Shown here in pieces: positions 8,407 to 37,921 of a stretch of 64,000 bases of DNA. Origin of the DNA: Bryobacterales bacterium. GTDB lineage: Bacteria > Acidobacteriota > Terriglobia > Bryobacterales > UBA6623. The translations under genes and the position numbers were made by a program. The stretch is from contig OZ250179.1 in the NCBI GenBank assembly GCA_965238125.1, forward strand, positions 5,237,271 to 5,301,270. Direction: 5' to 3'. The notes beneath the pieces were generated by a model. The model saw only the letters and a list, made by a program, of their open reading frames with translations, was not told where the DNA came from and did not search any database. The number at the start of each line of letters is the position of its first letter. Position 1 is the stretch's first letter.

Positions 8407-8613
8407 CCCTACATCCGTGGCCGTAGAATAACTTTCGCGGCTCTTTGAGTTTTCCGGTTCAGGGCACCGCCGCAGGATTGCTGTTAATAACAATCGATGT
8501 CACAAACAGACAAATTTTTTCGTCCAGGACGCTGCGTCCGCTCGGTTTCCGGGTCCGTCAAGGGCGGTGAAGACGCTTATCTGCCGGATTGTTCATGCGA
8601 ACCGGATTTCGCG
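8407..8613 (-). repeat. Inverted-repeat copy B1 (junction-module spacer + TGTGACATCGATTGTTATTAA box + 3' extension)
   Basis: Reverse complement is near-identical over about 207 bp to 37715-37921. The box lies at 8484-8504. It sits directly downstream of kinase-TolB gene 1 and abuts the convergent ThuA stop. Confidence 0.85.
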
Positions 8614-8657
8614 ACAGTAATCCTCAGACGAGCGCTATCTAGTTCGTTTCGGGGGAC

Positions 8658-11410
8658 TTAGTCCTGCTCGCGGTCGCGGAATTCTTCGAACCAGTTCTGC
8701 ACCACGCGGATTGACGGGGTATCGCTTCCTCGCTCTCCGCTTCATCCACAAGCACGAAGCGGCCGTCGGCGGAGACGTCGTAGGACACTGGAACGAAGCC
8801 GCCCGGCGGAAAAAGGTGGGTATCTGAAAACAGGGGCGTGGCCGCGACCGGCGCGAAGGCCGGAGACGTCGTCACCTCAACGGCCATCAGCGTGTCCCCC
8901 TCGACGTAGAACAGCTCTTTGCCGTCGTGGCTCCAGCGCGGCTGACAGCCCCCGCTCGCCGAGACCTGCCACTGCCCATCGCCGGAGGGAAACGGCCGCA
9001 CGTAAACCTGATGCTTACCTGAGTTGTCCGAGCAGTAAGCGATAAAACGCCCGCCGGGCGAAAGACGCGGCGCTTGCTCGGCGAAGGGCGTTTCAAGGAA
9101 CGGCACGGATTCAAACTCGTCCTCGTCGTCTTTGCGCTTCAGATACCAAATGTCGGAACTGCTATCTGCTCCGACCGCGAGAACTGTTCCAGCCGTGGAG
9201 ACCGTGTAGACCAGGTAGTTCCCGTCGCGAGACCAGCCGTAGGCGACCTCATGCGCCTCGGTGGTGGCGACCAACACCCGCGCCTCGCCGGTACCGTTCG
9301 CCGCCCGGCGGAAGATGTCGAAGTTTCCCTCGCGTAGCGAGGAAAACGTGATCTCTCGCCCCGAAGACGACCATTGCGGCAAGACATCGAGCGCCGCATC
9401 AAAGGTCAACCGCCGCTTCATCGGCCGCTCGACCTCATGCACCCAGACGTCGAAGTTGCCGCTTTCCGTTGCCCCCACCGCCACGCGGCGGCCGTCGGGA
9501 GAGATCACCGGGAAGCCAATGTACCGCTACGGCTGTCCGATCTCGCCGAGCTTCTCTCCGTCCCGGCCGCGCCAAACCAGTTGTTGCAGCGTCCCGGCCC
9601 CCTCGAGGAAAACCAGCGTTCCGTCTTCCGAGACGCTGGGATGGATGGCGTCCTCGGCGATCGGGAACGCCTCACCGCTCGGCTGCAGAGTCTCCAGCGA
9701 GAACGGCAAGGCCCAAAGACTCCCCTGCAGGCTGCTTCTTATCTTCGTAAACACAAGGTGTCCACTCGGCGAATAGCCGGCCCACACGCCGTCTTGGGCC
9801 AACAGTTGCGACTCGCCGGTTTCGAGGTTCTTGAGGACGATGTCTGTAGCGAACCCCTCCCCGACACTCAAAACCAAGCTTCGAGCACGAGCCTGGAGCG
9901 GCAGGAACCGAGGTTGAAGATTGAGGTTCCCTTTCTCGGTCTCCTCCCGCTCGAACAGCAGCTTGGGCGGCCCTCCCCGAGCGGGGACTTCATGGATTCG
10001 CAGGTCTGAGGCGAAGGCGACTGTCTGCCCATCGGGACTCCACGAGCCGCCCTGATAGCTGCCGGGCAATTGACAGAGCGTGACCGGCAGTCCCCCATCG
10101 ATCGAGATCTTCTTGAGCTCATCCTGTACGACGAAGCCGAGAAACCGGCTGTCGGGCGACCAGAAAGGATCCCGGCTCACGCCTTCGGTCCCGGCCAGTC
10201 GGCGTGGTTCTTCGCGATCGATGTCCCGCACCCAGAGCGCCGGCTCGCCCGGCCCGGCCAAATAGGCGATGTGCCGGCCGTTGGGAGACACGGCTTCGTT
10301 TAGGCCGATTGTCATCAACAGGGCCTCGGGAGCAAAGGACCACTTACTGACCAGGAGCTCGGGCGACCGAGTTTGCCTGAGGAAGAGCGAGGCAAAGAGT
10401 GCGATCGCAAGGCAGGCCGCCACCGCCCAGGAGAGTCGTTCACGGGTTGCGGTGGGGGCGCCTTGCTGGGCCTTGGGGACGGTGGCGAGTTCGGCTACGT
10501 TTGGGCCTTGTTGCGCTGGGGCTGGTTGTGTTGGACCGGCAGGAGTGCCGGTCGCTACGGGAGCACCTGTGCGCAGGATCGTCGATTTACCCGACTTCAG
10601 CTTCTCGCTGAGCGTTTCCAAGTCCACAACCATGTCGGCAGTACTTTGGTAGCGCCTGTCGGCTTCCTTGGCGAGACACTTGTTCACCAAAAGTTCCAAC
10701 TCCATCGGGACGCCCGTCCGCAGCGCTGTCATCGGCTCCGGCTCTTCGTTGGTGATCGAATACATCACGGCTTTGTCGTAGTGGCCCTTGAACGGCCGCT
10801 GCCCGGTGACCATCTCGTAAATGACAACACCCAGTGACCAGACATCCGTACGGTGGTCCAGCTCCATCCCGTAGGTCTGCTCGGGGGACATGTAGGTAAC
10901 CGTGCCCATGGTCTCGTCCAAACGGGTGAGCTTCGAGCGGTCGGTTAGCAGCGCCAGCCCGAAGTCCATGATGGTGACGTGGCCGTCTTCGCCGATCATC
11001 AGGTTCGCAGGCTTGATATCCCGGTGCACAATCTTCTTGCCATGTGCGGCTTGTAGGCCCTTGGCCGTCTGGATGGCGATGTCGAGAGCGTCCTTCAGCT
11101 TCAGCGGCCCGGCCTCGATCTTCTTCTCCAGCGGCTCGCCTTCGAGGAAGGCCATGGCAATGTAGGTGCGGCCATTGGCCTCCGCGATTTCATGGACGGT
11201 GCAGACGTTAGGATGATTTAGGGCAGCGGCGGCCTTGGCCTCACGCTCGAATCGCTTGCGGATCTCGGTGTCCTCGACCAGATGCGCGGCGAGGAACTTG
11301 AGGGCAACGGGGCGATCCAGCGACGTGTCTTCGGCCTTGTAGACGACACCCATGCCGCCCCGGCCGAGTTCGGCGGTGACCTTGTAGTGAGAGATCGTTT
11401 GGCCGACCAT
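8658..11410 (-). pseudogene. Ser/Thr protein kinase + TM + TolB-like beta-propeller (paralog 1), disrupted
   Basis: [47 protein letters not shown], then repeated SPDG/WSPDG propeller blades. In-frame TAG at 9527-9529 (GEIGQP*RYIGFPVISPDG). A 1-nt frame change at G-run 8716-8719 removes the conserved tail [18 protein letters not shown]-stop, which is still readable ending at 8658. Confidence 0.85.
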
Positions 11411-11500
11411 GACAGCCCGATTTTACCGTGATTCAGATAACTGCTGATAACAATCGATGTCATGAACTATTACATTTTTCGTCCCCAGGTGCTTGAGACG
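11411..11500 (-). promoter_or_regulatory. Conserved kinase leader module (box + TAAAAT 9 nt before the ATG)
   Basis: TGATAACAATCGATGTCATG box at 11445-11464. TAAAAT (minus strand) at 11425-11420, with exactly 9 nt to ATG 11410 and no purine-rich SD. Homologous to 52187-52260 and 59525-59600. Confidence 0.5.
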
Positions 11501-11648
11501 GCTTGGGCTGCCGCCGGTCTGACCTCTTGTTGAGGGAACCCTCGCCGCCGATTGTTGAGTCGGAAATCATTTCTCGACAACGATCAACCGCGACACTCCG
11601 ACTCGAAAGATTCTAGCTTGGGCGGGCGGCATAGGAGGCTGCTTAGCT

Positions 11649-12741
11649 ATGAATCAACCGACTCATCGTCGTACTCGTCGCCGGAGGAAATCTCCCACCT
11701 TGCCCGAACTCGAACAGGCCAAGGCCGGCGTCCTCAACAGTCTCGGGTCTCTGCAGTCTCGCCGGTCCTACGGACGTGCGATCGAGGAGTTTATCGTCTG
11801 GTACTGTTCCGAGCCGCGACTGGCTCTCAACCGTGCCGTCGTGCTCCGCTTCCGCCTACGACTGGAAAGTCTGCGTCTGGCCGCTGCCACGATCAACGTT
11901 CGCATGGCCGCTGTTCGCCGTCTTGCTACCGAAGCCGCCGACAGCGGTTTGCTCAGCCCGGATCTCATCGCGGGTATTCGACGGGTTCGCGGCGTCAAAC
12001 AGTTGGGTCGCCGTATGGGCAACTGGCTCACTCCCGACGAGGGGCAGCGCCTGCTCAGTGCTGTCAGCGCCGATACTCTCCGCGGCAAGAGGGGACGCCG
12101 CTATGCTGGGGTTGCTGCTCGGCTGTGGATTACGACGCTCCGAGCTGGTCGAATTGGACGTGGATCAGATCCAACAGCGGGAGCAGCACTGGGTGATCCT
12201 TGACCTGATCGGCAAGGGAGGCCGCGTGCGTACGGTGCCCATGCCGGGTTGGGTCAAGGAGGCGATGGATGAGTGGATCTGTTCTGCGGAGATCACGGAA
12301 GGCCGGTTGTTCAGGGCGATCCGCAAGAACGGCGTGATGTGGGGACACGGGCTAACGCAGAACGTGGTCTGGTACGTAGTAAAGCAGTGTGCCCAGCGAG
12401 CGGGCATTCAGAAGCTTTCTCCCCATGACCTGAGGCGCACCTGCGCCAGGCTGTGTCATGAAGCGGGCGGAGAGTTGGAGCAGATCCAGTTTCTGCTCGG
12501 CCACGCCTCGGTGCTGACAACCGAACGTTACTTCGGCTGCAAACAACAACTGGGCCAGGCTGTGAATGACCGAATCCAGCTAACTGTTGTCCACACTCGT
12601 ATCACCGATCTGGCAGCAGACACGGACAGGATCAATCAACGATCACAAAACGAAGGCCGAGGGTCCGCCACAGAGGAACCGAAACCCAGGAACGGCGGCC
12701 TGGCAGTGAGTGCAGCACGGAGTCACCGTCCGGATTCGTAG
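11649..12741 (+). pseudogene. Tyrosine recombinase/integrase with a frameshift
   Basis: Two overlapping ORFs (11649-12203, 11776-12741). Joining them at G-run 12091-12094 gives ...TLRGKRDAAMLGLLLGCGLRRSEL...HDLRRTCARL...LLGHASVLTTERYF (R..HxxR..Y catalytic pattern). Confidence 0.8.
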
Positions 12742-12963
12742 AATTGCCGGTCGCGCGGATCTTGAGTGTGTGACGTGCAAAAGAATGATCAGGTGGCCCC
12801 CCACAAGGCAGTCCCTTGAACTCTACGGCGCCGGCGAAAAGAACTGGACCGGTGCGCGAGAGGGTTGGATCTCGCTGATGATCAGTGCCGCGGTCTTCTG
12901 GATTGCATCGAGTGATGCCGCGAGTGTTCGGCGTCGCCGCCGTGGAGGTGGATGGAGTCGCGG

Positions 12964-13302
12964 CTAGCGGTGTTCGTTTCGAGGCCGACTGGTTGGGCAG
13001 ACGACGAAGGCGACGGCTTCGGCCTCTGTTTCCCGCATGCGGTGCGTGGTCTGCCGGCGATACGTCTGATGGAGGAGTTCGTGTGCGAACTCGTGCGCGA
13101 GGGTTGCGAACTCCTCTCCAGGCGGCAGTCCCGGGAGGAGCGTGATGTGCGCTCCGCGAGAGCACCCGTGAGCGGGAGCGATGCTCCGTGAGTACGCGTG
13201 ATGCCCCACTTTGCGATGACCGCCTTCAGGCGCGGTGTGGAGGACGGGGGAGAGCCCTGCACTGGACCGAGTTCTGGGAGCGGACGACCGCTTGTTCGCT
13301 TA
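12964..13302 (-). pseudogene. Zincin-type metallopeptidase fragment (ImmA/IrrE- or ArdC-C-terminal-like), 5' end cut by IS630
   Basis: ...GAHITLLPGLPPGEEFATLAHEFAHELLHQ...RETEAEAVAFVVC (HExxH plus downstream E). The reading frame runs straight into the IS630 left end at 13303. Confidence 0.55.
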
Positions 13303-14340
13303 CTGAGTCTCGCATAATATACTGTGAATCGAGACAAAGAGAAGACTGTTTCCAGAAAGCGGTAATCAAGCGCGGTTTGCGGCGCATTCGCCGCAGCGCT
13401 TTGCGGGCGCGCTCGTCGAGTTCCCAGTAGTCCTTCGGGCAGACGTTGGGCAACTCGTGCTGCTTCCAGTACGCCCAAATGTATTCCACCGGGTTCAACT
13501 CCGGCGCATAGGGCGGCAAGTACTCCGTTGCGATGTGATCCTCGGAGAGCTGGATGAACTCCCGCACCAGGCGGCTGCGGTGCGCCGGCAGCCGGTCCCA
13601 GACGATCAGCAGTGGGCCGTCGATGTGGCGCACCAAAGCCTTCAGGAAGTCGATGACCTCCAGCTCGCCGATCGCGCCGGGATAGAGCCGGAAGTAAAAG
13701 TTGCGCAACGTCAGCCCGGCCGACACCGACAGCTTGTCCCAGTTGAAGTTGAACTCCAACACCGGTGTCTCGCCGCGCGGCGCCCAGGTGCGGCAACGAT
13801 GCGGCTTCTGACTCAATCCGCTTTCGTCGATGAAGACGATCGTACGTTCTTCTTTGCGGGCTTTTTTTTAATGGCCGGCCAAGTCTTGCGCTGCCAGCCG
13901 CGGATGGCCTCTTCGTTGCGCTCCCGCGCTTTGCCGACGGGCCGTTGCGGGCTCCAACCGAGCGCCCGCAGGATCTTCCAGACATGGCCCTCGTGATAGC
14001 GCACGCCGAACTCGTCTCCGATCAGACGAGCGACCCGCGGACAGCTCCACAGCGGCGTCGGGAAGCCGTGCGCCTCGGGGCCTTCCAGCAGCAACGCCTC
14101 GAGGCGTTCGAGCTGCGCGGCGTCCAACAGCGGCTTACGGCCGGCGCGGCCGGCCTGGCGCAACCCGGCTTCGCCGTCACGCCGGTATCGTCGCAGCCAC
14201 TCGCTGACGCTTTGCCGCGCGACCTTCAATCGCCTCGCTGTCTCGGACTGACTACAGCCTTGCTCGACCAACCGGATCGCTTTGAAACGGCGCTTCTCCA
14301 GGGCCTCGAAATCCCGCCGTACGCCTTTTGTATTTCCCAT
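13226..14340 (-). CDS. IS630 transposase (HTH orfA + DDE orfB joined by -1 frameshift)
   Basis: MGNTKGVRRDFEALEKRRF...HTH; slippery A AAA AAG (T-run 13862-13869 on the plus strand). A -1 read gives ...IKKKARKEERTIVFIDESGLSQKPHRCRTWAPRGETP...DRLPAHRS...PPYAPELNPVEYIW. The stop seen in copy 4 is TCA here (G13326 versus C28627), so the ORF reads 33 codons into flanking DNA. Confidence 0.8.
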
Positions 14341-14395
14341 ACATACAAAGACGTACGTACCCCAAAAAGGTGTCACTTTATTTTGCGAGACTCAA
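13303..14395 (-). mobile_element. IS630-family insertion sequence, copy 1 (1093 bp)
   Basis: Terminal inverted repeats CTGAGTCTCGCATAATA / TTGAGTCTCGCAAAATA, flanked by TA (13301-13302, 14396-14397). Differs from copy 28604-29696 at only about 4-5 positions. Confidence 0.9.
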
Positions 14396-14397
14396 TA

Positions 14398-14786
14398 ATG
14401 TCGAAGACGTGAACGGTTCTGAACCCGGCGATGTGCTCTTCTTCATCCTCGGTCGACGCCGGCTGTCAGACAATTGGTGCGAGGATGGCGATACCCTTCG
14501 CTGGGAGTGACCGACGAGATGACCGACGACACTGTTTCGTCCTAAGCCAAGCGCTGTCGAGAAGGGCGAGACGCAGGGCTTCATGAAGGCGCTCGTCGAC
14601 GCCGAGACAAAGCGGTTTCTGGGTGCGGCGATCCTCGGCGTTGGCGGAGACGAGGTCGTGCACTCCATCCTGGAAGTGATGTACGCCGATGTTCCGTACA
14701 CCGTGCTCCAGCGGGCGGTGCACAGTCACCCGACCGTAACGGAGTTGATTCCGACAATGCTGCAGGGTCTCATGCCGTTGGAGTAG
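14398..14786 (+). pseudogene. Pyridine nucleotide-disulfide oxidoreductase, C-terminal remnant
   Basis: ...AVEKGETQGFMKALVDAETKRFLGAAILGVGGDEVVHSILEVMYADVPYTVLQRAVHSHPTVTELIPTML (dimerisation domain). The upstream part is frame-broken and cut by IS630. Confidence 0.6.
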
Positions 14787-15105
14787 TCACGGACCGCTTT
14801 ACCGCCACCCATGACGAGCCGGAGTCAACCTCTCCTCAGCAGCATCGGCGGAGCCTCTGCCGTTCTCGGCTGTGTGTCTTTCTCGCAGGAACTTTCCTCT
14901 ATCCGATGTAGATGGACCCAAAACGACCCTGTTGCCGCCTTCGAGGAGTATGCTGCCTGACCGCGGACTCGGGGCAACCGCTCCCTGACGGGTACCACCA
15001 CGCAGATCTACGACAAGCGGCGGCTCACGTCGTGGTCACTTATTTTCCACTGACCGCTGCTAAAAGGCGGCTCATCAACCGCCACAAGGCGCTTTCGTAA
15101 CAGCG

Positions 15106-16329
15106 CTACAGCGCCGCGCGGCTTTGAAAGCCCGCCCGAACATGATTCGCGATCACTCCCAATCCGAGCAACACCGCGAAAAACCGCACCAACGCGCCAA
15201 GGAACGGCACACTCGTAAGAACCACCCAGAGCAGCAGGCCGACCAGCAACGCCGCGGCAAATGAGCCGAGCCGGTCGAAAGGCTTTTTCAGCAAGGCTTG
15301 GCCGGCAAACGCAGCAACGACCAGCACCGCGAAGTAAAGTCCCGCCAGCCAGCAGAGGAGGCCCAACAACCCGATCGGCAACCCGATGACCGTGACCATG
15401 ACAAGCACCGCCGCCACTGGAGTCGCGACCAGCGTCAAGAAGCCGATACCCACGTTTCGGAGCAGCGCCAATCCGCTTGCCGGGCGGTTTGCAAATAGCG
15501 CCGGCACCAACAGGAAGAGCACAAGCCCCGTCGCGAACCCCGCGCCAAGACGGAAAATTTGCCATCCGTAAAATCCGGGGCTCGCGAACCGGCTCGTGTC
15601 AACGCGCCGAGCCCGGACTTGAATGTCACGCCGCCCCCCAATCGTCGCTCCCGGTTCGACCTGAACGTCATCCGCGTCGTCGACATGGGCGGTTAGGTTG
15701 CCGTCGACCTCGGCAGGCGCCTGCAGTGACAGACGGGCCGTCCACGCCTCGAGGTTGCGTCCGACTTTCCCCCGAACATCCGTCATTGCGGCAAAAGCGA
15801 GCAAGTCCCGACCAACGGAGCCGTCCGCGGAAACCTCCGACCCGAACGCGATGACGTCTCCTTCCACGCTTGCGTCCGGGCGAAGCCGTACTTGCTCAGC
15901 AAAACTGTGCAAGCTTTCGCCGACATCGCCGTTCAGCTCGACCTCCTGTGAAAAAGTGAACGCGTTGCCTTCGACTGTCCCCGGCAGGTCGACCTCTCGA
16001 GCCGCGGCAATCAAGTCCCCGGTAATGGTGCCGTTGACGGTGATTCTTCTGGCGGCGGCAATAACGTTGCCGGAGACGATTCCGTCAATGGTGACGGTTT
16101 CGCCTGCTACGATCAACGTATCGTCAATTCGCTCGTCGCTGCCGATGACGACGCGGGCAGATGCGTCCCCGACGCGAACTTCGACGGCAGGGCTGAGGGC
16201 GGGCCAAAGTAACAGGATCATCAGCAGTATTGGCCGGACGAGACGCAGGCTCGGTCGACCCCCAGCGAAACGAGAGACTGTCGAAAACCCGCTGACGGAC
16301 GCTGCCGAAGAATTACGCAGAACCTGCAT
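15106..16329 (-). CDS. Membrane protein with bactofilin-like (polymer-forming cytoskeletal) repeats and a multi-TM C-terminus
   Basis: ORF 15106-16407; likely ATG at 16329. Repeated GxV.G[DN] beta-helix-like units (VTIDGIVSGNVIAAARRITVNGTITGDLIAAAREVDLPGTVEGN...) followed by 4-5 hydrophobic helices. Confidence 0.6.
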   Translation of the reverse strand: MQVLRNSSAASVSGFSTVSRFAGGRPSLRLVRPILLMILLLWPALSPAVEVRVGDASARVVIGSDERIDDTLIVAGETVTIDGIVSGNVIAAARRITVNGTITGDLIAAAREVDLPGTVEGNAFTFSQEVELNGDVGESLHSFAEQVRLRPDASVEGDVIAFGSEVSADGSVGRDLLAFAAMTDVRGKVGRNLEAWTARLSLQAPAEVDGNLTAHVDDADDVQVEPGATIGGRRDIQVRARRVDTSRFASPGFYGWQIFRLGAGFATGLVLFLLVPALFANRPASGLALLRNVGIGFLTLVATPVAAVLVMVTVIGLPIGLLGLLCWLAGLYFAVLVVAAFAGQALLKKPFDRLGSFAAALLVGLLLWVVLTSVPFLGALVRFFAVLLGLGVIANHVRAGFQSRAAL

Positions 16330-16496
16330 GTTGGAGCCTCTTTCCCCAATCGATTCTGTGAGCAATAGTAGTTTACTAAGGTCCACCAGTGCGGAGTCAA
16401 GCATCAAGATTCATCGTACGTTGGTCTCAGGACGCCTGAGCGGATCGCACCGACTCTATAATAAAACGCCGCGACCTTCAGCAGCTGAATGCCGAG

Positions 16497-18328
16497 GGGT
16501 GCGCGACATAAATGTGGGAGCTTGTGGGGTTGTCTTTTTTTGTGGCGTTTTTCCTTGCGTATGTATACGCTAGGTAATAAGGAGGTGCCCCGTGCCCCAA
16601 TCTCTCGCTGCCCTCGAACGACAACGTGCCGCGATTCTCTCCGAGATCCTCCACTTAGGAGACTTTCGCAGCGGCTCGATTACCGCCACCCGCGGCCGCT
16701 GCGGCAAACCGAATTGCCGCTGCCACCAACCCGACCAACCGCCCCATGGTCCGCATTTCCGCCTCACCAAAAAAGTGAGCGACAAGACCGTGACTGAGAC
16801 CTTCTCTTCGCCCGCGGATCGCCGCAAGGCCGAACGCCAGGTGGCCGAGTTTCATCGCTTCCAACAACTCAGCCGGCAATTGCTCGATGTCAACGAAAGC
16901 ATTTGCCGTCTGCGACCCGCCGCAGACACCCCGAAGCCCCAGGAAAAAAAACGGCCGAAACCATCCGCCACGAAGTCGCCCAAGAAGTGACGCAGCTGCT
17001 CGGGGTCATCTTCCGCGGCCAACGCCGCGGCGACCCCCTCGATCTCGAAGCCGTCGAGACGGCGGTTCGCGGCACCATGCATCGCGCCGGGACCACGCTG
17101 CTGAGCAAGTTACTGTCGTCCTCCGAGACCGTGCCGTCCCGAATCCCCTGCCCCTGCGGTCAACAAGCTTGCTGCCGCGATACTCGCCCCAAACAACTCA
17201 CCACCGTGGTGGGCGAGGTGCGTTTCGAGCGCGCCTACTACCTCTGCTCGACATGCCGCCGGGGACAAAGCCCGCGCGACCGCGAACTCGACATCGAAGG
17301 CACCGCCTGCTCGCCCGGCGTGCGCCGCATGATGGCGCTGGTGGGCAGCGAAACTTCTTTCGAGCAAGGCCGTGAACAACTCGACGTCTTGGCCGGTCTC
17401 GACGTTACCGCCAAGTCCGTCGAACGCCATGCCGAGGCCCTCGGCGCCGACATCGAAGCCCGCGAGCAAGTGGCGATCCAACGCGCCAAGCAACTCGACT
17501 TGCCGCACGTCGCCGCCCCCGCCGTGCCCCTGCTCTACATCGAAATGGACGGCACGGGCATTCCCGTCGTGGCCGCCGAGACCGCCGGCCGTGTCGGAAA
17601 AACCGCGGGGCGGCCGGCCCGCACCCGCGAGGTCAAACTCGGCTGCGTCTTCACCCAAACCACCACCGACGAACAAGGCCGGCCGCGGCGCGACGAGAAC
17701 TCGACCAGTTACAGCGCGGCGATCGAGGGAGCCGAGGCGTTCGGCTTGCGGCTGTATACGGAAGCTTGGCGGCGGGGCTGGAGCCGTGCTCGCAAGAAAG
17801 TCATTCTCGGCGACGGCGCGCCCTGGATCTGGAACCTGGCACATCAGCACTTCCCCGGCGCCGTCGAGATCGTCGACCTTTACCATGCGCGGCAGCATCT
17901 GTGGGAGTTGTCGGCGAAACTGTTCCCGAGCGATGAGCGCCGGCGGAAACGTTGGGCCGCGCGGTTGTTGCACAAGCTCGAACAAGGCAAGATCAAGGCG
18001 TTGGTGAAAGTCTTACGCGGGTTCTCCACGCCGAATCAGGAGTCGGCCCATTTGCTCGCCAACGAGGCGGACTACTTCGAGCGCAACGCCGAGCGGATGC
18101 GGTATCCCGAGTTTCGCCGCCAGGGATTGTTTGTCGGCTCGGGAGTGGTCGAGGCGGGCTGCAAGAAGGTGATCGGCGCGCGGTTAAAGCGCTCCGGCAT
18201 GTTCTGGACGGTGCGCGGCGCCAACGCCATCATCGCGTTGCGCTGCTGTCGGCTGAGCGGAAGGTTCGAGGATTACTGGGAGGCCCGTGCCCGCGCCGCT
18301 TGATTTCCCACATTTATGTCGCACACCC
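16497..18328 (+). mobile_element. ISKra4-like insertion sequence (1832 bp)
   Basis: 23-bp terminal inverted repeats GGGTG[C/T]GCGACATAAATGTGGGA at 16497-16519 and 18306-18328. Perfect 9-bp direct duplication AATGCCGAG at 16488-16496 and 18329-18337. Confidence 0.85.
16592..18303 (+). CDS. ISKra4-family transposase in two frames (A-run 16944-16951)
   Basis: The N-terminal Cys-rich part (RGRCGKPNCRCH) ends at 16990. The -1 frame continues ...YYLCSTCRRG...LYIEMDGTGIPV...ILGDGAPWIWN...IVDLYHARQHL...GSGVVEAGCKKVIGARLKRSGMFW, typical of ISKra4 transposases. Confidence 0.8.
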
Positions 18329-18364
18329 AATGCCGAGCCTGTCCAGCCTGTCCTTGGACCAACC

Positions 18365-19519: not shown

Positions 19520-19522
19520 CCC

Positions 19523-19650
19523 GAGCTGCCGGTCGCGGAACCCCGCGAACCAGTTTTGGATCACGTGGATTGACGGCTGGGCGGCCTCTCCCACCAGATC
19601 GGGTAAGAGAAACCGCTGCCCGTCTGCCGAGACGTCGTATCGGGGAGCTG
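19523..19650 (-). pseudogene. Solo 3' remnant of a kinase-TolB gene
   Basis: The minus strand reads RYDVSADGQRFLLPDLVGEAAQPSIHVIQNWFAGFRDRQLG, matching the C-termini of 8658-11410 and 49548-52186. No gene body lies upstream. Confidence 0.6.
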
Positions 19651-19666
19651 TGAACCGAAAAACGCG

Positions 19667-20242: not shown

Positions 20243-20312
20243 CGGTGCCTCGATCGAGTGTGGACAGCGTTTGGGCGGGATGCTGAAGTATTACTACCGC
20301 CAAGCCGCCTGA
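20243..20312 (+). pseudogene. Tiny C-terminal scrap of an rve-type transposase
   Basis: ...IECGQRLGGMLKYYYRQAA-stop; compare the end of the rve transposase at 47464 (GGLHHRYERRAA-stop). Confidence 0.3.
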
Positions 20313-21393: not shown

Positions 21394-21395
21394 TA

Positions 21396-21742: not shown

Positions 21743-21745
21743 AAA

Positions 21746-26766: not shown

Positions 26767-27326
26767 ACGATCGTACGTTCTTCTTTGCGGGCTTTTTTTT
26801 AATGGCCGGCCAAGTCTTGCGCTGCCAGCCGCGGATGGCCTCTTCGTTGCGCTCCCGCGCTTTGCCGACGGGCCGTTGCGGGCTCCAACCGAGCGCCCGC
26901 AGGATCTTCCAGACATGGCCCTCGTGATAGCGCACGCCGAACTCGTCTCCGATCAGACGAGCGACCCGCGGACAGCTCCACAGCGGCGTCGGGAAGCCGT
27001 GCGCCTCGGGGCCTTCCAGCAGCAACGCCTCGAGGCGTTCGAGCTGCGCGGCGTCCAACAGCGGCTTACGGCCGGCGCGGCCGGCCTGGCGCAACCCGGC
27101 TTCGCCGTCACGCCGGTATCGTCGCAGCCACTCGCTGACGCTTTGCCGCGCGACCTTCAATCGCCTCGCTGTCTCGGACTGACTACAGCCTTGCTCGACC
27201 AACCGGATCGCTTTGAAACGGCGCTTCTCCAGGGCCTCGAAATCCCGCCGTACGCCTTTTGTATTTCCCATACATACAAAGACGTACGTACCCCAAAAAA
27301 GTGTCACTTTATTTTGCGAGACTCAA
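26767..27326 (-). mobile_element. IS630-family copy 3: 5' half only
   Basis: Near-identical to the orfA half of copies 1 and 4, from the right IR (TA at 27327-27328) to about 25 nt beyond the slippery run (26793-26800). The DDE half is deleted. Confidence 0.85.
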
Positions 27327-27328
27327 TA

Positions 27329-28601: not shown

Positions 28602-28603
28602 TA

Positions 28604-29696
28604 CTGAGTCTCGCATAATATACTGTCAATCGAGACAAAGAGAAGACTGTTTCCAGAAAGCGGTAATCAAGCGCGGTTTGCGGCGCATTCGCCGCAGCGC
28701 TTTGCGGGCGCGCTCGTCGAGTTCCCAGTAGTCCTTCGGGCAGACGTTGGGCAACTCGTGCTGCTTCCAGTACGCCCAAATGTATTCCACCGGGTTCAAC
28801 TCCGGCGCATAGGGCGGCAAGTACTCCGTTGCGATGTGATCCTCGGAGAGCTGGATGAACTCCCGCACCAGGCGGCTGCGGTGCGCCGGCAGCCGGTCCC
28901 AGACGATCAGCAGTGGGCCGTCGATGTGGCGCACCAAAGCCTTCAGGAAGTCGATGACCTCCAGCTCGCCGATCGCGCCGGGATAGAGCCGGAAGTAAAA
29001 GTTGCGCAACGTCAGCCCGGCCGACACCGACAGCTTGTCCCAGTTGAAGTTGAACTCCAACACCGGTGTCTCGCCGCGCGGCGCCCAGGTGCGGCAACGA
29101 TGCGGCTTCTGACTCAATCCGCTTTCGTCGATGAAGACGATCGTACGTTCTTCTTTGCGGGCTTTTTTTTAATGGCCGGCCAAGTCTTGCGCTGCCAGCC
29201 GCGGATGGCCTCTTCGTTGCGCTCCCGCGCTTTGCCGACGGGCCGTTGCGGGCTCCAACCGAGCGCCCGCAGGATCTTCCAGACATGGCCCTCGTGATAG
29301 CGCACGCCGAACTCGTCTCCGATCAGACGAGCGACCCGCGGACAGCTCCACAGCGGCGTCGGGAAGCCGTGCGCCTCGGGGCCTTCCAGCAGCAACGCCT
29401 CGAGGCGTTCGAGCTGCGCGGCGTCCAGCAGCGGCTTACGGCCGGCGCGGCCAGCCTGGCGCAACCCGGCTTCGCCGTCACGCCGGTATCGTCGCAGCCA
29501 CTCGCTGACGCTTTGCCGCGCGACCTTCAATCGCCTCGCTGTCTCGGACTGACTACAGCCTTGCTCGACCAACCGGATCGCTTTGAAACGGCGCTTCTCC
29601 AGGGCCTCGAAATCCCGCCGTACGCCTTTTGTATTTCCCATACATACAAAGACGTACGTACCCCAAAAAGATGTCACTTTATTTTGCGAGACTCAA
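28604..29696 (-). mobile_element. IS630-family copy 4 (1093 bp, intact)
   Basis: Same IRs as copy 1. TA at 28602-28603 and 29697-29698. Inserted inside an ORF that is restored in frame when the IS plus one TA is removed. Confidence 0.9.
28626..29641 (-). CDS. IS630 transposase (orfA/orfB, -1 frameshift at 29163-29170)
   Basis: ATG 29641, A AAA AAG slippery site, orfB ends ...AFWKQSSLCLD-stop at 28626. Confidence 0.85.
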
Positions 29697-29698
29697 TA

Positions 29699-30440
29699 AG
29701 GACCGGGCCATGATCCGGCAGACCATCGAGTAGCCGTATTCGGTGAGGTGAATCCCGTTAAAGGTCAGATTGTGAGCGGAGCGGGAATCGATCAACTCCC
29801 GCGTGGGCGCGAACAGATCGACAAAGAGCAGCTCGTGCCGCCGGGCAGCCTCGGCCATTGCCCCGGTGTAAAGCTCGAGATACTCGTTGTGCTCAGCGGG
29901 ATCGGGGAGATTCCCCCCAAGGTTTTCGTGGGCGATGGGTGAGACGAGCACGATCCGCGGGGCGGACCGCCCGTTATACTGATGCGCTCGAAGGTCCTGG
30001 ATAAACGCGGCGAGATGCTGTTGAAACCGTCCTAGACCCTCCGGACCCTTGAACGACTCGTTCATGCCGAAACAGGCAAAAATCACATCGGCTCGCCGCT
30101 CGGCCAAGTACTTGTGAAGATCACCAAAGCCCTTTGGGCGCGGCATCAGTGTCAGCTCGTCCGCGGACCATCCCATGTTCCGAACCTGTAACTGGTGATC
30201 CGGAAATCTAGCGTGCAGGAACGTTTCGAAGTAGCCGAAGAGATGCATACGTTCGGCGAACGTGTTGCCGATGAACACAATGCTTTCATGCTTGCCAAGC
30301 TTCAACGGCCCGGCTGACGCGTCGCGCATCCACGAACAGGTCAGCGTTAACGCGCCCAGCAGGAGGGTTACCAGGAAGACCACTGTGGGGGCTGCCAACA
30401 GAGAAGTCGGCGTACTAGTCGATTTTAGACGGAAGTTCAT
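29699..30440 (-). pseudogene. Same large PVC-type protein, N-terminal segment (signal/TM + SGNH/GDSL hydrolase domain)
   Basis: MNFRLKSTS...VVFLVTLLLGAL (TM), IVFIGNTFAE, ADVIFACFGMNES, RIVLVSPIAHE. The frame continues as ...IMARSL|GLVSDTASPD... across the IS630 insertion. Confidence 0.75.
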
Positions 30441-30487: not shown

Positions 30488-30905
30488 GCCCCGACTCTCC
30501 TCGCACTCTACGACGCCGTTTCATCGAGTTCGGCCCGCCCGACTCGCGACTTGGTTCCCCAAAAGCACCGGCAAACATCACGTTGTCTCCCCGCGTCACA
30601 AGGACGACACCGCTGAAGTCTCGGTGTAACGCGCGACGAGTCTTTCGATCCCTTGGGAGATTGCGGTGTCTTCCGATTGAGCGGCCGGTTCAGGCCCGTC
30701 CCGCAGGCAAGCAGTCAATCGGAACAAGAGTCTAATCCACATTTGCCCACAACATGCAGAACTCTCTCCCCTGCCCCTTCACCGAGCCTCTCAGCGATCT
30801 TGTAGTGGCTGATGGTTTTGCCAATCAAGATGGGGACATTGTACCGCTACGAGGGATTGGTGTTGATAACAATCGTTCCGTCCATCAATCGGATTTTTCA
30901 GCTCA
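30488..30905 (-). repeat. Inverted-repeat copy A2: kinase 5' module + serine-hydrolase 5' fragment
   Basis: Partner of 2741-3128. Partial box TGATAACAATCG at 30864-30875, TACAAT (minus) 30843-30838, 9 nt, TTG 30828, LIGKTISHYKIAERLGEG, then MWIRLLFRLTACL...FSGVVLVTRGDNVMFAGAFGEPSRE with frame breaks. Confidence 0.75.
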
Positions 30906-31764: not shown

Positions 31765-31939
31765 GCTTGGTGTTCTCCATGCGCCAATCCGAGATTAGGT
31801 CTCGAAGGAGACCGCCTTCACCGAGCTTGGCGAGGAGCTTGAAGTGGGAGATGGTTTGGCCGGTCATGCCGGTCCAATTCTTACTGTTGCGAACAATCGA
31901 TGTCACCAACAATGTGCGGGCGCACCGTCAAGCCCTTGG
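31765..31939 (-). repeat. Kinase 5' module copy placed directly upstream of DoxX, cut by IS1380
   Basis: Box GAACAATCGATGTCACC at 31891-31907. AAGAAT (minus) 31882-31877, 9 nt, ATG 31867, MTGQTISHFKLLAKLGEGG, then non-kinase sequence and the DoxX ATG 47 nt later. The upstream spacer is interrupted at 31940 by IS1380. Confidence 0.7.
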
Positions 31940-33606
31940 CCCGGATTTCCACTTTAGTTTCGGTTCTGCTAACCATCGGGTGGACTCGGACGCCTTTATT
32001 TATGCGGGCTTGAAAGCACTCAAGGCGCTGAGGAGATCAACACCCAATGGGTGAAAAAGAAAACAAACCGTTTCAGCTCACCTTCAATGGATTTCTCAAG
32101 GTCGATTTCCAAGGATCGCGAGTCACCTCGGATGGCGGGCTGATTCTCATTCGCGAACTGGACGAACGACTCGGACTAGGCAAGCTGATAGACGAGCATC
32201 TGACGGATTCGCGGCAAGGCTCGAACAAGAAGTTCCCGTTCGTCGATCTGCTGCGACAGTCGGTCTACTCCCGCTTGGCGGGCTACGAGGATCTCAACGA
32301 CGCCGTTCGTGTCTCCGCCGATCCAACCTTTCGGCTGATTGGCTCGAAGAAGAACTGGGATCGCGGCGCGGCGCTGACCTCCCGGCTGCAGAGCTTCGAG
32401 ACCGCCATGCTCGCCGGCGACGAGAATCTGATCGGGCTGATGGCGGTGAACCGCGAGTTGATCGCGCAAGCCGAGGCCGGTGATGACTCCGAGTGCGTCG
32501 TGCTGGACATGGACTCTACCGAGAGCCCCGTCCACGGCCGGCAGGAAGGCAGCGCCTACAACGGCCACTTCGAGTCGGTCTGCTACCACCCACTGTTGCT
32601 GTTCAACCAGCACGGCGATTGCTTGGCGGCAAAGTTGCGACCGGGCAACGTGTCCAGCGCCGAGGACTGGGACGAGCTGCTGCTGCCGGAAATCGAACGC
32701 CAACAGGCGGAGGGCAAACAGGTGACGTTCCGGGCCGATGCCGCCTTCGCCAAGCCGGATATTTACGAGACGTTGGAGGAGCGCGGCGTGGACTACGTGA
32801 TTCGCATCCCGGCCAACAAGAGCCTGGAGCTGGAGATCGAAGATATCCTGTTTCGTCCGCCGGGCAGGCCGAGCGCAAAGCCCCTGGTGCGCTACAGGAG
32901 CTTTCGGTATCAGGCCGCGAGCTGGTCGAAGTCCCGGCGGGTTGTTGCGAAGGTCGAGCATCACCAAGGTGAGTTGTTTCCTCGCGTCGGTTTCATCGTC
33001 ACGAGCATGGCCTTGCCGAGCCGCTCGCTGGTGCGGTTCTACAACAAGCGCGGCACGGCGGAGCAGTGGATCAAGGAAGGCAAACAAGCGACGCATTGGA
33101 CAAGGCTGTCATGCCATCGGTTCCGGGCCAACGAAGTGCGACTGCAACTCAGCGTGCTGGCCTATAACCTGGGGAACCTATGGCGGAGGCTCGGGCTGCC
33201 GCAACGGATCAAGAGCTGGTCGCTGACGAGCTTGCAACAGCGGCTGATGAAGACGGGCGGTAGGCTGGTCAAGCATGCGCGGTACTATTGGCTGCTGTTG
33301 GCCGAAGGACATCTGAACCGGCGGCTGTTCGGCGACATGCTGCATAGGATCTGGGCGCTGCCTGTGCCGGGTGGGTAGCGTTGCCCGGGCGAGGATCAAC
33401 AGTTTTTGGCTCCAAAAAGGTTTCGCAGGGAGCAGTGTCGGCCGGAGCGCCGTTCAGTCCGCTCAATCAACGTCTGTGAGCGGACGGACGAGCCCTGGCG
33501 CCTACCGGCGGAGGTGATGTGCAGGGTTCAGCGCGAAAAGACGTGGTATTCGGCGCAGCGGGGGTGTATCCTGTGACCGTGCCAGGGCCAAAATGGAAAT
33601 CCTGGC
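31940..33606 (+). mobile_element. IS1380-family insertion sequence, copy A (1667 bp)
   Basis: Ends CCCGGATTTCCACTTT... / ...AAAATGGAAATCCTGGC (imperfect IRs). 4-bp duplication TTGG at 31936-31939 and 33607-33610. Near-identical to 56071-57737. Confidence 0.9.
32047..33378 (+). CDS. IS1380-family DDE transposase
   Basis: 443 aa. [60 protein letters not shown] and [10 protein letters not shown] are typical of IS1380. Confidence 0.9.
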   Translation: MGEKENKPFQLTFNGFLKVDFQGSRVTSDGGLILIRELDERLGLGKLIDEHLTDSRQGSNKKFPFVDLLRQSVYSRLAGYEDLNDAVRVSADPTFRLIGSKKNWDRGAALTSRLQSFETAMLAGDENLIGLMAVNRELIAQAEAGDDSECVVLDMDSTESPVHGRQEGSAYNGHFESVCYHPLLLFNQHGDCLAAKLRPGNVSSAEDWDELLLPEIERQQAEGKQVTFRADAAFAKPDIYETLEERGVDYVIRIPANKSLELEIEDILFRPPGRPSAKPLVRYRSFRYQAASWSKSRRVVAKVEHHQGELFPRVGFIVTSMALPSRSLVRFYNKRGTAEQWIKEGKQATHWTRLSCHRFRANEVRLQLSVLAYNLGNLWRRLGLPQRIKSWSLTSLQQRLMKTGGRLVKHARYYWLLLAEGHLNRRLFGDMLHRIWALPVPGG

Positions 33607-33767
33607 TTGGCCGATAAGGATATCCCATGTTCTCACAGCCTGTTGCGTGTCCCGCGAGGGGCGATTGCTGGTGGGAAATTATTTATCGGTACCTATCCGG
33701 CGCCGTGTGCCCCGCCCCGCCTAAGTCGTTGAAAACAATAGATACAGTCTGCACCGGGAAACGAATC

Positions 33768-34442
33768 ATGACACCCAAAGCAGCCCGACCCAAGGCGTTC
33801 GCGTACCTCCGAGTGAGCGGCAAGGGGCAAGTCAGGGGTGACGGTTTCACTCGCCAACTGCGGGCCATCCGCGCCTATGCCAAGCAGCAAGGTATTCGGA
33901 TAACACAGGTGTTCCGCGAGGAAGGCGTGAGCGGCGCAACAGACCTCGCCAACCGACCCGCGCTCTCGGGCCTGATTGCAGCCCTCCACGGCAACGGGGT
34001 CAAGCTCGTGCTCGTCGAGAAGCTGGACCGTCTCGCCCGTGACCTCATGGTCCAGGAAACCATCATCGGCGATCTGAGAAAACATGGTTTCGAGCTTGTC
34101 TCAGTCCATGAACCCGACCTTCTCCGGGACGACCCGACCCGTGTCCTCATGCGCCAGATGATGGGGGCGATTGCGCAATACGAGAAGGCCGTGATTGTAA
34201 TGAAGCTACGGGGCGCACGGGAGCGTAAGAAGGCCCGCACGGGTCGCTGTGAAGGCCGCAAGCCCTTCGGATTCTATCCAGGCGAAAAGGCCGTCTTGGA
34301 GCGCATGAAAGCCCTGCGGGGGGAGGGGCTGGGTTTCGACCGTCTCGCCGCCCAGATGAACGCTGAGGGGCTCAGGAGGCGCAAGGGAACGCCTTGGGAT
34401 GGGAAGAGCATGAACCGGATCTTGACGCGGTTAGGTGTCTGA
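33768..34442 (+). CDS. Small serine recombinase (resolvase/invertase family)
   Basis: ATG 33768. AFAYLRVSGKGQ (catalytic Ser), LVLVEKLDRLARD, GAIAQYEKAVI, and a C-terminal GRKPFGFYPGE...LAAQMNAEGLRRRKGTPW DNA-binding region. Confidence 0.85.
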   Translation: MTPKAARPKAFAYLRVSGKGQVRGDGFTRQLRAIRAYAKQQGIRITQVFREEGVSGATDLANRPALSGLIAALHGNGVKLVLVEKLDRLARDLMVQETIIGDLRKHGFELVSVHEPDLLRDDPTRVLMRQMMGAIAQYEKAVIVMKLRGARERKKARTGRCEGRKPFGFYPGEKAVLERMKALRGEGLGFDRLAAQMNAEGLRRRKGTPWDGKSMNRILTRLGV

Positions 34443-37106: not shown

Positions 37107-37370
37107 CTAGCCTTCCCGGCGCTTGTCCTGGATGAGCTCCCGTAGCTCTTGACTGGCCTTGAAGAAGGGGGATCTTCTTGGGAGGAACTTGCACCGGTTG
37201 GCCCGATTTGGGATTCCGTGCGATACGCCCTCGGCGCGCCGCCGAGTGCCGAAGCTTCCAAACCTTCGAATCTCAACTCTCCGGCCCTCTCGCAGTGCTT
37301 TAACTACGCTCTCGAAGACGGTTTCCACAATTGCCGTAGCCTCTCTGCGAGAAACATTCGACGACGCGTG
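37107..37370 (-). pseudogene. HU/IHF-family DNA-binding protein, decayed
   Basis: ...LSRREATAIVETVFESVVKALREGRRVEIRRFGSFGTR (frame 0), ARRGRIARNPKSGQPVQVPPKKIP (shifted frame), FFKASQELRELI (frame 0 again). No clear start codon. Confidence 0.65.
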
Positions 37371-37493
37371 CCTCCCTAACGCGCGCGGGTCGGTTTTGGG
37401 TGGCGCCTGGCTCGGTTACCTACCGGAAAGCTGCGGACATCTCTATGGAGCTACCGAGCAAGGATCTAATTTCCGGTAGAGCTAGGCAAGAGC

Positions 37494-37670
37494 CACTCCC
37501 TTGTTCGATCACCCGAGCTTGGCCGCTCCTCCGATCCCCAATACGACGTTTCGGCCGACGGGCAAGGCTTTATCATCGCCACGCCGGTCGAAGACGCGCC
37601 CGGCGCCAAGCCGATGATCCGCGTTGTAATGAATTGGGCCGAAGAGTTCCGCGACCGCGAGGGGGACTAA
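37494..37670 (+). pseudogene. Solo 3' remnant of a kinase-TolB gene
   Basis: TPLFDHPSL... then QYDVSADGQGFIIATPVEDAPGAKPMIRVVMNWAEEFRDREGD-stop (37668-37670). Confidence 0.65.
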
Positions 37671-37714
37671 CTTCATGCACACCAGTCAGTTGAGGCTCTC
37701 CCGAACTTAGATGT

Positions 37715-37921
37715 TGGGAAATCGGGTTCGCATGAACAATCCGGCAGATAAGCGTCTTCACCGCCCTTGACGGACCCGGAAACCGAGCGGACGCAGCGTC
37801 CTGGACGAAAAAATTTGTCTGTTTGTGACATCGATTGTTATTAACAGCAATCCTGCGGCGGTGCCCTGAACCGGAAAACTCAAAGAGCCGCGAAAGTTAT
37901 TCTACGGCCACGGATGTAGGG
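37715..37921 (+). repeat. Inverted-repeat copy B2 (junction-module spacer + box + 3' extension)
   Basis: Near-identical reverse complement of 8407-8613. Box TGTGACATCGATTGTTATTAA at 37824-37844. Confidence 0.85.

Follow-up and report, generated by a model that had tools for sequence, protein, structure and literature searches.

Inverted 197-nt repeats around a transposon-rich interval of a Bryobacterales chromosome: apparent orphaned kinase-gene modules and old scars of genome plasticity

Background

Large inversions mediated by insertion sequences (IS) or rrn operons result from homologous recombination between inverted dispersed repeats. Invertible segments of the Hin/Gin/Cin and fimS type, shufflons and the invertible promoters of Bacteroides are bounded by sites of ~14-40 bp, require a recombinase that is dedicated and intact, act as switches of a promoter or of gene segments, and occur in both orientations. 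Breakpoint-associated inverted duplications and templated ectopic repair patches, as envisaged in staggered-break or break-induced copying models, consist of a short copied piece with one homologous and one abrupt edge. For the tufA and tufB genes of Salmonella, conversion and inversion were reportedly described by Abdulkarim and Hughes in 1996 and by Hughes in 2000.

The 64-kb stretch of DNA that was analysed as a whole (hereafter the window) belongs to a transposon-rich, rearrangement-prone region of a Bryobacterales (Acidobacteriota) genome, and contains two inverted repeat arms separated by 29 kb. Like tufA and tufB, the arms are inverted, near or fully identical copies between unrelated or diverged flanks, with an identity that runs to the bounds of homology and with the potential to serve as a substrate for RecA-dependent inversion (PMC6735719, PMC5485169). 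Unlike the tuf genes, which are essential and 1.2 kb long, the arms comprise 197 nt of regulatory sequence that is non-coding and apparently dead, and are therefore not maintained by selection; moreover, neither conversion nor inversion was observed for them, and their spacing varies by strain (29 kb versus about 596 kb). With IS- and rrn-mediated inversions the window shares its tendency to rearrange and the presence of several inverted pairs (an IS1380 pair and IS630 copies), but the arms are not mobile elements and are much shorter than the IS pairs of the region, which are the stronger substrates. As in Hin- and fimS-type systems, inverted repeats enclose a DNA segment with recombinase genes nearby; here, however, the repeats are relics of paralogs with a length of 197 nt, only fragments of the recombinases are present, no functional element would be switched, and a single orientation was seen. 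The short copied piece and the combination of one homologous with one abrupt edge are shared with templated repair patches, although in this case the mechanism is deduced from edge anatomy only, and a simple staggered-break inversion does not fit the order of the broken RraA-like gene.

Results

In a global alignment, positions 8407-8603 and 37725-37921 are reverse complements of each other over 197 nt with 0 mismatches, the first mismatch being at 8604. Self-blastn of the window extends the match to 210 nt at 98.6% identity (8407-8616 versus 37921-37712), and a repeat search to 213 nt at 98% complementarity (8404-8616 and 37712-37924). The near-identical inverted repeats of the preliminary description are therefore real, and their exact identity, for which it had proposed a pairwise aligner, amounts to 0/197 differences over a tract that stops at 8603/8604. 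The arm is present in exactly two copies within the window, and this pair is indeed far more alike than the other modules, of which the window copies (59550-59787, 52217-52269 and 49474-49601) are 80-86% identical to it. The pair is an example of a dispersed inverted low-copy repeat and a possible substrate for non-allelic homologous recombination.

Many paralogous Ser/Thr-kinase/PD40 genes, with conserved intergenic modules, are present in this Bryobacterales-like genome, and each arm is, judging from its sequence, an orphaned intergenic module of this family. A functional module is composed of the tail of the preceding gene, a conserved 15-mer (hp), ~90 nt, a 22-nt box, a -10-like element GGTA(G/A/C)AAT, 9 nt, and the start codon. 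The left arm (8407-8603, minus strand), which lies 32 nt past the stop codon of a ThuA-domain gene, and the right arm (37725-37921, plus strand) both contain hp and the box, followed by an extension with ~45 nt of unique sequence at the position where the kinase start codon is expected. On its inner edge, the left arm carries the hp motif as GAAATCCGGTTCGCA (8596-8610, minus strand), and it is inside this motif that the perfect identity ends; the right arm has, on its own inner edge, the natural variant GAAATCGGGTTCGCA (37718-37732, plus strand), a G variant that is also present in L002 and L003. The position of hp ~90 nt upstream of the box is conserved in the window modules as well as in the loci L001-L004 of Bryobacterales metagenome-assembled genomes (MAGs). 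The box itself (TGTTTGTGACATCGATTGTTAT; 8487-8508 on the minus strand in the left arm, 37820-37841 on the plus strand in the right arm) has six sites in the window at no more than 3 mismatches, compared to 0 expected (0 occurrences in 100 shuffles of the window), which excludes chance. In a collection of genome contigs that is without the source genome it gave only four matches, spread over two MAGs of Bryobacterales.

The unique part of the extension (8407-8453, minus strand; right-arm counterpart 37875-37921) has no homology to other modules and takes the place of -10-like element, start codon and kinase codons alike. That both arms carry the same 3' extension, at the breakpoint that replaces the kinase start, is confirmed by the alignment. 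In the ThuA-linked orphan module the -10-like element reads GGTGCCCT, its functional form having been lost; the box together with GGTAGAAT is a candidate promoter of the kinase genes, of which the arm version GGTGCCCT may be a dead form. The extension was found only beside ThuA (7 contigs) and at the right-arm locus (the window and L018-L020), while an exact 27-mer taken from it had 0 matches in JGI metagenomes. Promoter and terminator scans around both arms predicted neither, the right arm folded with its flanks as RNA has no special structure (z = -0.65), the Rfam scan of the whole window at gathering thresholds returned no family, and the tRNA scan found none. It seems probable that the two arms are passive relics without a function of their own. 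Separately, a module in L003 contains a similar CAGCAATC..GGCGGCGG stretch, but has no ThuA nearby.

The outer neighbour of the left arm is the ThuA-domain gene (7442-8374, plus strand; Pfam PF06283), which is convergent with the module and whose exact protein is present on four contigs, one of them 6.92 Mb in length. On the inner side, the left arm does adjoin a nearly complete kinase gene, as initially described (2772 nt on the minus strand, from 11410 to 8639, with Pkinase and PD40 domains), but as a pseudogene, hereafter kinase Y. It is disabled by a CAG to TAG change at 9527-9529 (CAG in L013) and by a frameshift near 8700. Positions 8868-11452 match an intact 943-aa gene of L013/L014 at 98.3% identity, and the identity falls abruptly near 8900, just past a ...KELFYVEG motif; kinase Y is thus a chimera of paralogs whose sharp junction falls in a conserved motif. 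The right arm adjoins, on its inner side, the tail relic of a kinase-PD40 paralog (37480-37672, plus strand; about 60 codons, the last reading ...YDVSADGQGFIIATPVEDAPGAKPMIRVVMNWAEEFRDREGD before the stop), again in agreement with the preliminary description, and the two are kept together in L018-L020. Outside the right arm lie 387 bp of unassigned origin (37922-38308), which are 96.4% identical in L018-L020, where an IS3-family element is located 9 nt outside the arm, and then a truncated RraA-like gene (38298-38750, minus strand).

The 29.1 kb between the arms (8604-37724) are, as claimed, rich in IS elements, and consist of gene fragments and mobile elements: four copies or fragments of the IS630 family (13296-14402, 20542-21400, 26761-27328 and 28600-29700), an ISKra4-family element (16592-18303), an IS1380-family element (31940-33607), and truncated genes for a tyrosine recombinase (11776-12741, matching only the catalytic half of the profiles) and a serine recombinase (33627-34442). 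The IS1380 elements of the window form an inverted pair of 1668 nt at 99.76% identity, of which each copy retains its own matching 3-nt flanks, a weak indication that the pair has not recombined. Block 38309-45405 of the window duplicates a native locus, from which it has diverged in a mosaic pattern. An independent 20.7-kb contig of the same strain (L009) reads window positions 9041-21410 directly as 100% identical and, according to the contig coordinates, the match would run on to about 29766. Exact-protein look-up gave no record for the kinase tail ORF (8639-9508), the 55-aa ORF at 37966 and the radical-SAM ORF, and the left inner junction and right outer flank are therefore not traceable by this route.

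The junction between ThuA and the left arm is conserved in seven contigs from seven samples (including L005, L006, L007, L013, L014 and L015), in strains that differ from each other by 0-18 substitutions in 5077 bp (at most 0.35%), and just inside this junction the same seven contigs display four different states. Three contigs of a sister lineage, from three samples (L018-L020), contain the right arm together with its relic and outer flank, at 99.0% identity to window positions 37418-37930. Since the right-arm locus, with the same inner and outer flanks, is common to both lineages, the pair must be older than their split and can therefore not be a recent duplication, as had been suggested, nor an inversion specific to the window or an assembly artefact. 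On the sole contig with both arms, ctg586462, they have the same relative orientation as in the window and lie ~596 kb apart, a spacing that comes from this one metagenome contig. The comparison of synteny, which had been proposed as a check, revealed no inverted isomer, and the neighbours at both ends of the interval are the same in both lineages.

Left and right arm differ at 4/197 positions in the sister lineage versus 0/197 in the window genome. All three differences between the right arm of the window and that of L018 are private to L018 and fit the ordinary divergence of the right-hand block (1-2.6%), so that no conversion is required to explain them. The divergence of this block is mosaic, not clock-like, and the block is located at different places in different strains.

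Discussion

The pair probably goes back to an old, one-sided ectopic copying event, in which templated repair placed the sequence of the ThuA-linked module in another module, both copies having been passive relics since. The module next to ThuA would have lost its kinase long ago, with ~45 nt of unrelated sequence left where the start codon belongs. Before the split of the window and sister lineages, ~200 nt of this orphan module would then have been copied in inverted orientation into another module without reciprocal exchange, the likeliest route being repair of a break in the recipient module: the broken end may have invaded through the conserved hp motif (giving the in-register inner edge), synthesis would have proceeded across the orphan module, and the new end would have been joined without homology, giving the abrupt outer edge at 8407 and 37921. 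The two edges point in this direction, as the inner one is located inside hp, with flanks beyond it that are still in register yet only ~65-75% alike, and the outer one is abrupt between unrelated flanks. We infer the break-repair mechanism from this edge anatomy only, and likewise infer that copying proceeded from left to right; ThuA homologs between 73% and 100% identity are lacking (the next homolog being at 73%), so that the origin of the extension lacks an outgroup, none having been found with a module-free ThuA 3' flank. Since then, paralog recombination, deletions and IS activity have repeatedly remodelled the DNA inside the left arm.

Two other routes were discarded and a third was downgraded. 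A staggered-break inversion does not fit because the wrong half of the broken RraA-like gene comes after the right arm, the N-terminal one instead of the C-terminal one. A simple inversion relative to the L007 strain, in which ThuA and the native PSCyt2 locus are ~69 kb apart in opposite orientations, fails because the PSCyt2 block of the window is a diverged paralogous duplicate and not the native locus. A hotspot for a hairpin nuclease at 8603/8604 was downgraded, given that a 17-kb deletion with 7/10 microhomology explains the junction in L006 and that crossovers in register, within the conserved hp motif, account for the others.

Under the ectopic-copy reading, the complete identity of the arms in this genome could reflect either a short branch or gene conversion at a later time, and the 0/197 versus 4/197 differences fit both. 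Gene conversion, as had been suggested, therefore stands as a possible reason for the 0/197, but is not demanded by the differences in the sister lineage. Conversion tracts are known to extend to the bounds of homology (PMC5485169).

Flipping of the 29-kb interval through RecA is a possible event, and the arms are long enough to allow it, in line with the preliminary description. The minimal length for RecA recombination is well below 197 nt of perfect identity, which the arms thus exceed amply. That they are an active substrate, on which conversion keeps up the identity and occasional flips let both isomers coexist, we consider rather doubtful. The absence of differences here, compared to four in the sister lineage, would agree with it, as would the fact that contigs of the same strain from a second sample break close to both arms, at a distance of 170-440 bp (L009 ends at 9041, and L008 starts at 38093), and the inverted tuf genes of Salmonella both convert and invert (PMC6735719, PMC5485169). 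Yet no contig contains the flipped junction, both lineages keep the kinase Y side at the left arm and the relic at the right arm, and the L018-private differences fit ordinary block divergence. An inversion between the arms would in any case exchange only pseudogene tails and alter no intact gene.

A 2532-bp IS91-family element with a tyrosine recombinase occurs in sister strains, where a single nucleotide of the box has received it repeatedly and in the same orientation. Its insertions lie beside at least five different kinase-proximal flanks (L013, L018, L019 and L021), and the conserved box in front of these kinase genes seems to be its target. A wider role of the box, as a genome-wide site of recombination and insertion through which kinase/PD40 modules are reshuffled and inactivated and the interval is inverted site-specifically besides by RecA, is improbable; if true, IS91-linked machinery, or hp as a preferred crossover point, would drive exchange from box to box or module to module. 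More improbable still is that the interval by itself is a segment inverted by a recombinase acting on a short site in the arms, for which the box is the candidate. It is true that the box is intact and inverted in both arms, that it is the insertion target of the recombinase-bearing element in sister strains, and that recombinase gene fragments lie within the interval. However, the IS91-family element has no copy in the 64-kb window, the tyrosine recombinase of the window is a truncated one that shares only 35% identity with its IS91-linked counterpart, and the serine recombinase is a fragment, so that instead of an intact dedicated recombinase beside short inverted sites there are remnants beside 197-nt relics. 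Nor is there a promoter or alternative gene segment to switch (none being predicted, no terminator either, and the -10-like element being lost): a pseudogene tail and a relic lie inside, convergent ThuA and a truncated gene outside. The spacing of ~596 kb in the sister lineage and the lack of an isomer among the available contigs likewise argue against it.

An assembly artefact, in which a chimeric join or false duplication in the source contig created one of the arms, is hardly credible. Its starting point is that the left inner junction (8603/8604) is seen in the source contig only (L009 stopping short of it and L006 having another junction), as is the chimeric junction near 8900, and that L006 is 100% identical over window positions 1-8603 and then continues differently. 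L006, however, is explained as a 17-kb deletion variant of the L013/L021 arrangement that ends at 8603/8604, the left outer junction is present in seven independent contigs and the right arm with both junctions in three (L018, L019 and L020), and the long reads implied by the 6.92-Mb contig would greatly exceed a repeat of 197 bp. Both arms having been assembled independently, with only the 8603/8604 junction lacking a second contig, this alternative was rejected.

There is next to no chance that a composite mobile element of 29.5 kb has the arms as its terminal inverted repeats, despite the inverted, identical ends and an interior full of transposases and recombinases. The flanks, compared as ...TACGCGGAGC on the left and ACTTCCTACC on the right, contain no target-site duplication (...GCGGAGC versus ACTTCCT...), and neither an empty site (the ThuA flank joined to the 387-bp flank) nor the same 29.5-kb unit elsewhere was found. 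In addition, the arms share homology with kinase modules of the ordinary chromosomal kind, with inner edges that fade into paralog homology, the left arm is fixed beside ThuA while the interior differs in every strain, and the arms of the sister lineage are ~596 kb apart, so the unit did not move as a whole. A MITE or small non-autonomous repeat is dismissed, as there are only two copies in the window, the arm is without terminal inverted repeats, and the extension is otherwise limited to the two orthologous loci.

Conclusions

The arm pair is ordinary debris of genome plasticity, i.e. a set of old scars and not a programmed switch, and as such is of little importance, being one more dispersed inverted repeat pair in a junkyard region. 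It does caution that near-identity of short repeats need not imply a recent event, and the targeting of the box by the IS91-family element could merit a separate study. The value of the pair is that of a marker: with four structural states at one junction among strains no more than 0.35% apart, it shows, together with the contigs of the sister strains, that the chromosomes of this acidobacterial lineage break and rejoin at the modules between kinase/PD40 paralogs.

Extent and surroundings of the arms

Over 197 nt the two arms match without a single mismatch (8407-8603 against the reverse complement of 37725-37921 in a global alignment, 197/197, position 8604 being the first mismatch), which bears out the near-identical inverted repeats of the preliminary description. 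Slightly wider limits were returned by an inverted-repeat search of the window (8404-8616 and 37712-37924, 213 nt, 98% complementary) and by self-blastn (8407-8616 against 37921-37712, 98.6% over 210 nt), and copies of the same type elsewhere in the window are, as had been noticed, clearly less alike (80-86% identity to the arm). The outer edge is abrupt, with unrelated flanks, and no target duplication is present at the outer edges (left flank ...GCGGAGC, right flank ACTTCCT...). The inner edge falls within the conserved 15-mer hp, past which both sides still align in register at only ~65-75% identity, because these flanks are the tails of different paralogs.

A convergent ThuA gene has its stop codon 32 nt before the left arm, and the arm's inner neighbour is the kinase-PD40 pseudogene kinase Y (8639-11410, minus strand); the right arm is preceded by a 60-codon tail relic and followed by 387 bp of unknown origin and then a truncated RraA-like gene. 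The earlier account of one arm beside a near-complete kinase-TolB gene and the other beside a 60-codon relic therefore holds, the former gene being a pseudogene (a CAG-to-TAG change at 9527-9529 and, late in the gene, a frameshift near 8700). In the sister-strain contigs L013 and L014 its ortholog is an intact 943-aa gene ~5.5 kb further on (98.3% to window 8868-11452). The 5' 2.5 kb of kinase Y tracks this ortholog perfectly down to ~8900 and then at ~65%, switching sharply to another paralog's tail at a conserved ...KELFYVEG motif, a drop that marks kinase Y as a chimera from recombination between paralogs. At the break of the RraA-like gene lies a 57-bp-period tandem duplication (38302-38396, with identical 38-nt stretches at 38302-38339 and 38359-38396), which is polymorphic, the same-strain contig L008 having one copy.

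The arms as dead kinase modules

The window (~61% G+C, on a source contig of 6.92 Mb) encodes, among others, PSCyt1/PSCyt2/PSD1, DUF1501 and ThuA proteins, and among named relatives, those nearest to it in protein and DNA are Bryobacterales/Bryobacteraceae MAGs. Several Ser/Thr-kinase/PD40 genes (TolB-like propeller) and gene fragments lie in it, surrounded by a conserved module. Read in the sense of the kinase gene, this module consists of the end of the previous kinase gene, hp (GAAATC[C/G]GGTTCGCA), a spacer of ~90 nt, the 22-nt box (TGTTTGTGACATCGATTGTTAT), ~20 nt, GGTA(G/A/C)AAT, 9 nt and finally ATG/GTG/TTG. The box occurs at six sites (8487-8508, 11447-11468, 31890-31911, 37820-37841, 52223-52244 and 59561-59582) versus none expected, and hp at 8596-8610, 37718-37732, 52333-52347 and 59672-59686; both recur in modules (L001-L004) from two further Bryobacterales MAGs. 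Conservation of the module across paralogs and species (L001-L004) is about equal to or above that of coding sequence. The -10-like element sits close to the start codon, which suggests near-leaderless kinase mRNAs.

From hp onward, each arm corresponds to such a module, though a dead one: the -10-like element reads GGTGCCCT, and the start and kinase codons are replaced by an extension of ~45 nt (8407-8453) that no other module shares, confirming in both arms the 3' extension described earlier. Around the arms there is no predicted promoter, terminator or unusual RNA fold, and no Rfam family. Elsewhere, the minus-strand ORF 57623-59524 has a conserved kinase N-terminus and a module with the box at 59561-59582, its remaining ~600 codons having no Pfam match and running into an IS1380 copy; this is probably one more kinase locus that has fused or decayed.

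Age and origin of the pair

The decisive result comes from L018, L019 and L020, of three samples, which carry the right arm between the relic and its outer flank (L018 7095-7607 against window 37418-37930, 99.0%). In all three, an IS3-family element lies 9 nt outside the right arm, beyond which homology resumes up to window 45430. L018 and L013 are on one contig of 760,692 bp (ctg586462), where ~596 kb separate the left arm (near 148.2 kb) from the right arm (near 744.5 kb) and the two are inverted relative to each other, just as they are in the window. In the sister lineage the arms differ at 4/197 positions, the right arm having three private substitutions and the left arm one (besides a 25-bp box deletion in L013 and L015). 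The pair is accordingly older than the split of the two lineages and not specific to the window, the 29-kb spacing being one arrangement among several. A recent duplication or inversion, as first proposed, is thus not borne out.

We consider it probable that the pair arose long ago, when the orphan module linked to ThuA was copied non-reciprocally, and inverted, into a second module. Entry would have been guided by homology at hp, leaving the in-register inner edge, and the outer join would have been non-homologous, leaving the abrupt outer edge, which would explain why there are two kinds of edge. Since the extension lies beside ThuA in every sampled lineage and otherwise only at the right-arm locus, we infer that copying went from left to right. 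The gene conversion suggested earlier is compatible with the 0/197 differences in the window genome, and conversion tracts are known to extend to the bounds of homology (PMC5485169). Later conversion may therefore have produced this identity, but a short branch may have done so equally well: all three differences between the right arms of the window and L018 (3/3) are private to L018, in a block that diverges by 1-2.6% anyway.

Could the interval flip?

An active flip-flop of the interval, with conversion between the arms, seems rather unlikely. A perfect inverted repeat of 197 nt is, by its length, a plausible RecA substrate, and the tufA/tufB inversions offer an analogy for RecA-mediated exchange between the arms (PMC6735719); to this extent the proposed flipping by homologous recombination stands. 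However, no flipped junction was found among the available contigs, and each end of the interval has the same neighbours in both lineages. The arms show the testable defining features of dispersed inverted repeats mediating non-allelic recombination, apart from evidence that exchange took place, and are as such a further instance of a well-known repeat class. Inversion between them would swap only the pseudogene tail and the relic.

The window also contains a stronger inverted pair, of the IS1380 family (31940-33607 and 56070-57737, 1668 nt, 4 mismatches), 22.5 kb apart and overlapping the interval between the arms. It is a far stronger inversion substrate than the 197-nt arms, and shows no sign of exchange, because each copy keeps its own matching 3-nt flanks (TGG; CAA/TTG).

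A site-specific switch is highly improbable: the arms fail when tested as ends of a site-specific invertible segment, and likewise when tested as a MITE. An assembly artefact deserves still less credit, given that the right arm is independently confirmed by L018-L020 and the junction of ThuA and arm occurs in seven contigs. Of the sample ERZ26167216, the same-strain contig L009 matches window 9041-21410 at 100% by direct reading (and, extrapolated by coordinates along its 20.7-kb contig, would continue to ~29766), while L008 covers 38093-44672 minus one copy of the tandem duplication; only the junctions at 8603/8604 and near 8900 (the chimeric one) are without an independent contig. Least probable of all is that the arms are terminal repeats of a composite element, the test for a composite transposon having failed as well.

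Rearranged surroundings and the left junction

The block 38309-45405 (RraA'-PSCyt2/PSD1-DUF1501-774aa) is a diverged segmental duplicate (~95.7%) of a native locus, ABC-RraA-PSCyt2-DUF1501, which is intact in L010, L011, L016 and L017, and two different 828-aa variants occur on the source contig. Where the window and L018 differ within the block, the changes are clustered, a pattern indicative of tracts of recombination or conversion. A further inverted pair (2740-3128 and 30488-30871, ~390 nt, 88%) consists of kinase 5' fragments with upstream sequence, and the synteny of L005/L007 ends near 3330, close to its left copy. The plasticity zone reaches past the repeat pair (45400-64000), with an IS3-like fragment (46368-47294), a second tyrosine integrase, which has an arm-binding domain (48170-49372), a kinase-PD40 gene broken by a frameshift (49548-52186) and an IS256/Mutator-family transposase (61954-63270).

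A separate lead, apart from the arms, is the box insertion in sister strains of a 2532-bp IS91-family element (encoding a 291-aa tyrosine recombinase and a 401-aa Y2 transposase), which has no copy in the 64-kb window. It always inserts at one box nucleotide (...GATAACA, element, AACAATCGATGTCA..., with AACA on both sides), in constant orientation relative to the module and with at least five different kinase-proximal flanks (L013 12324-14855 and 19324-20933; L018 1627-4158 and 17285-19816; L019 59-2590 and 17286-19817; L021 1939-4470). Between L018 and L019 the right flanks of the copies agree and the left flanks do not, suggesting exchange among copies. The 25-bp deletion in the ThuA-linked arm of L013 and L015 (locus ~11046, window 8484-8508) removes precisely the box along with the point of IS91 insertion (AATAACAATCGATGTCACAAACAGA), and L014, of the same lineage, retains the box. 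Possibly a footprint left by IS activity, the deletion shows that the orphan arm is free of constraint.

Contigs of close relatives, found via exact-protein look-ups in metagenomes, carry the ThuA-arm junction in seven cases (including L005, L006, L007 and L013-L015). Across the 5077 bp on the arm's left side, 0 (L006), 10 (L013-L015) or 17-18 substitutions (L005, L007) separate them from the window, and on the arm's inner side they part from the window and from one another within 8604-8618. Just inside the arm, a paralog tail of ~300 nt is fused to kinase Y in the window, an intact 771-aa kinase is found in L005 and L007, and in L013-L015 a 110-bp tail relic precedes the gene of a short-chain dehydrogenase and an element of the IS91 family. 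L006, also of ERZ26167216, is 100% identical to window 1-8603 and passes at 8603/8604 (L006 11153-11170) into a 5'-truncated HATPase-Toprim gene (780 aa versus 899-918 aa in full-length relatives). On comparison of the contigs, this arrangement is a 17-kb deletion relative to L013/L021, with microhomology of 7/10 bases at its junction; the deletion variant shares its sample with contigs identical to the window interior. One junction thus exists in four structural states among nearly identical strains, which is more notable than the repeat pair itself.
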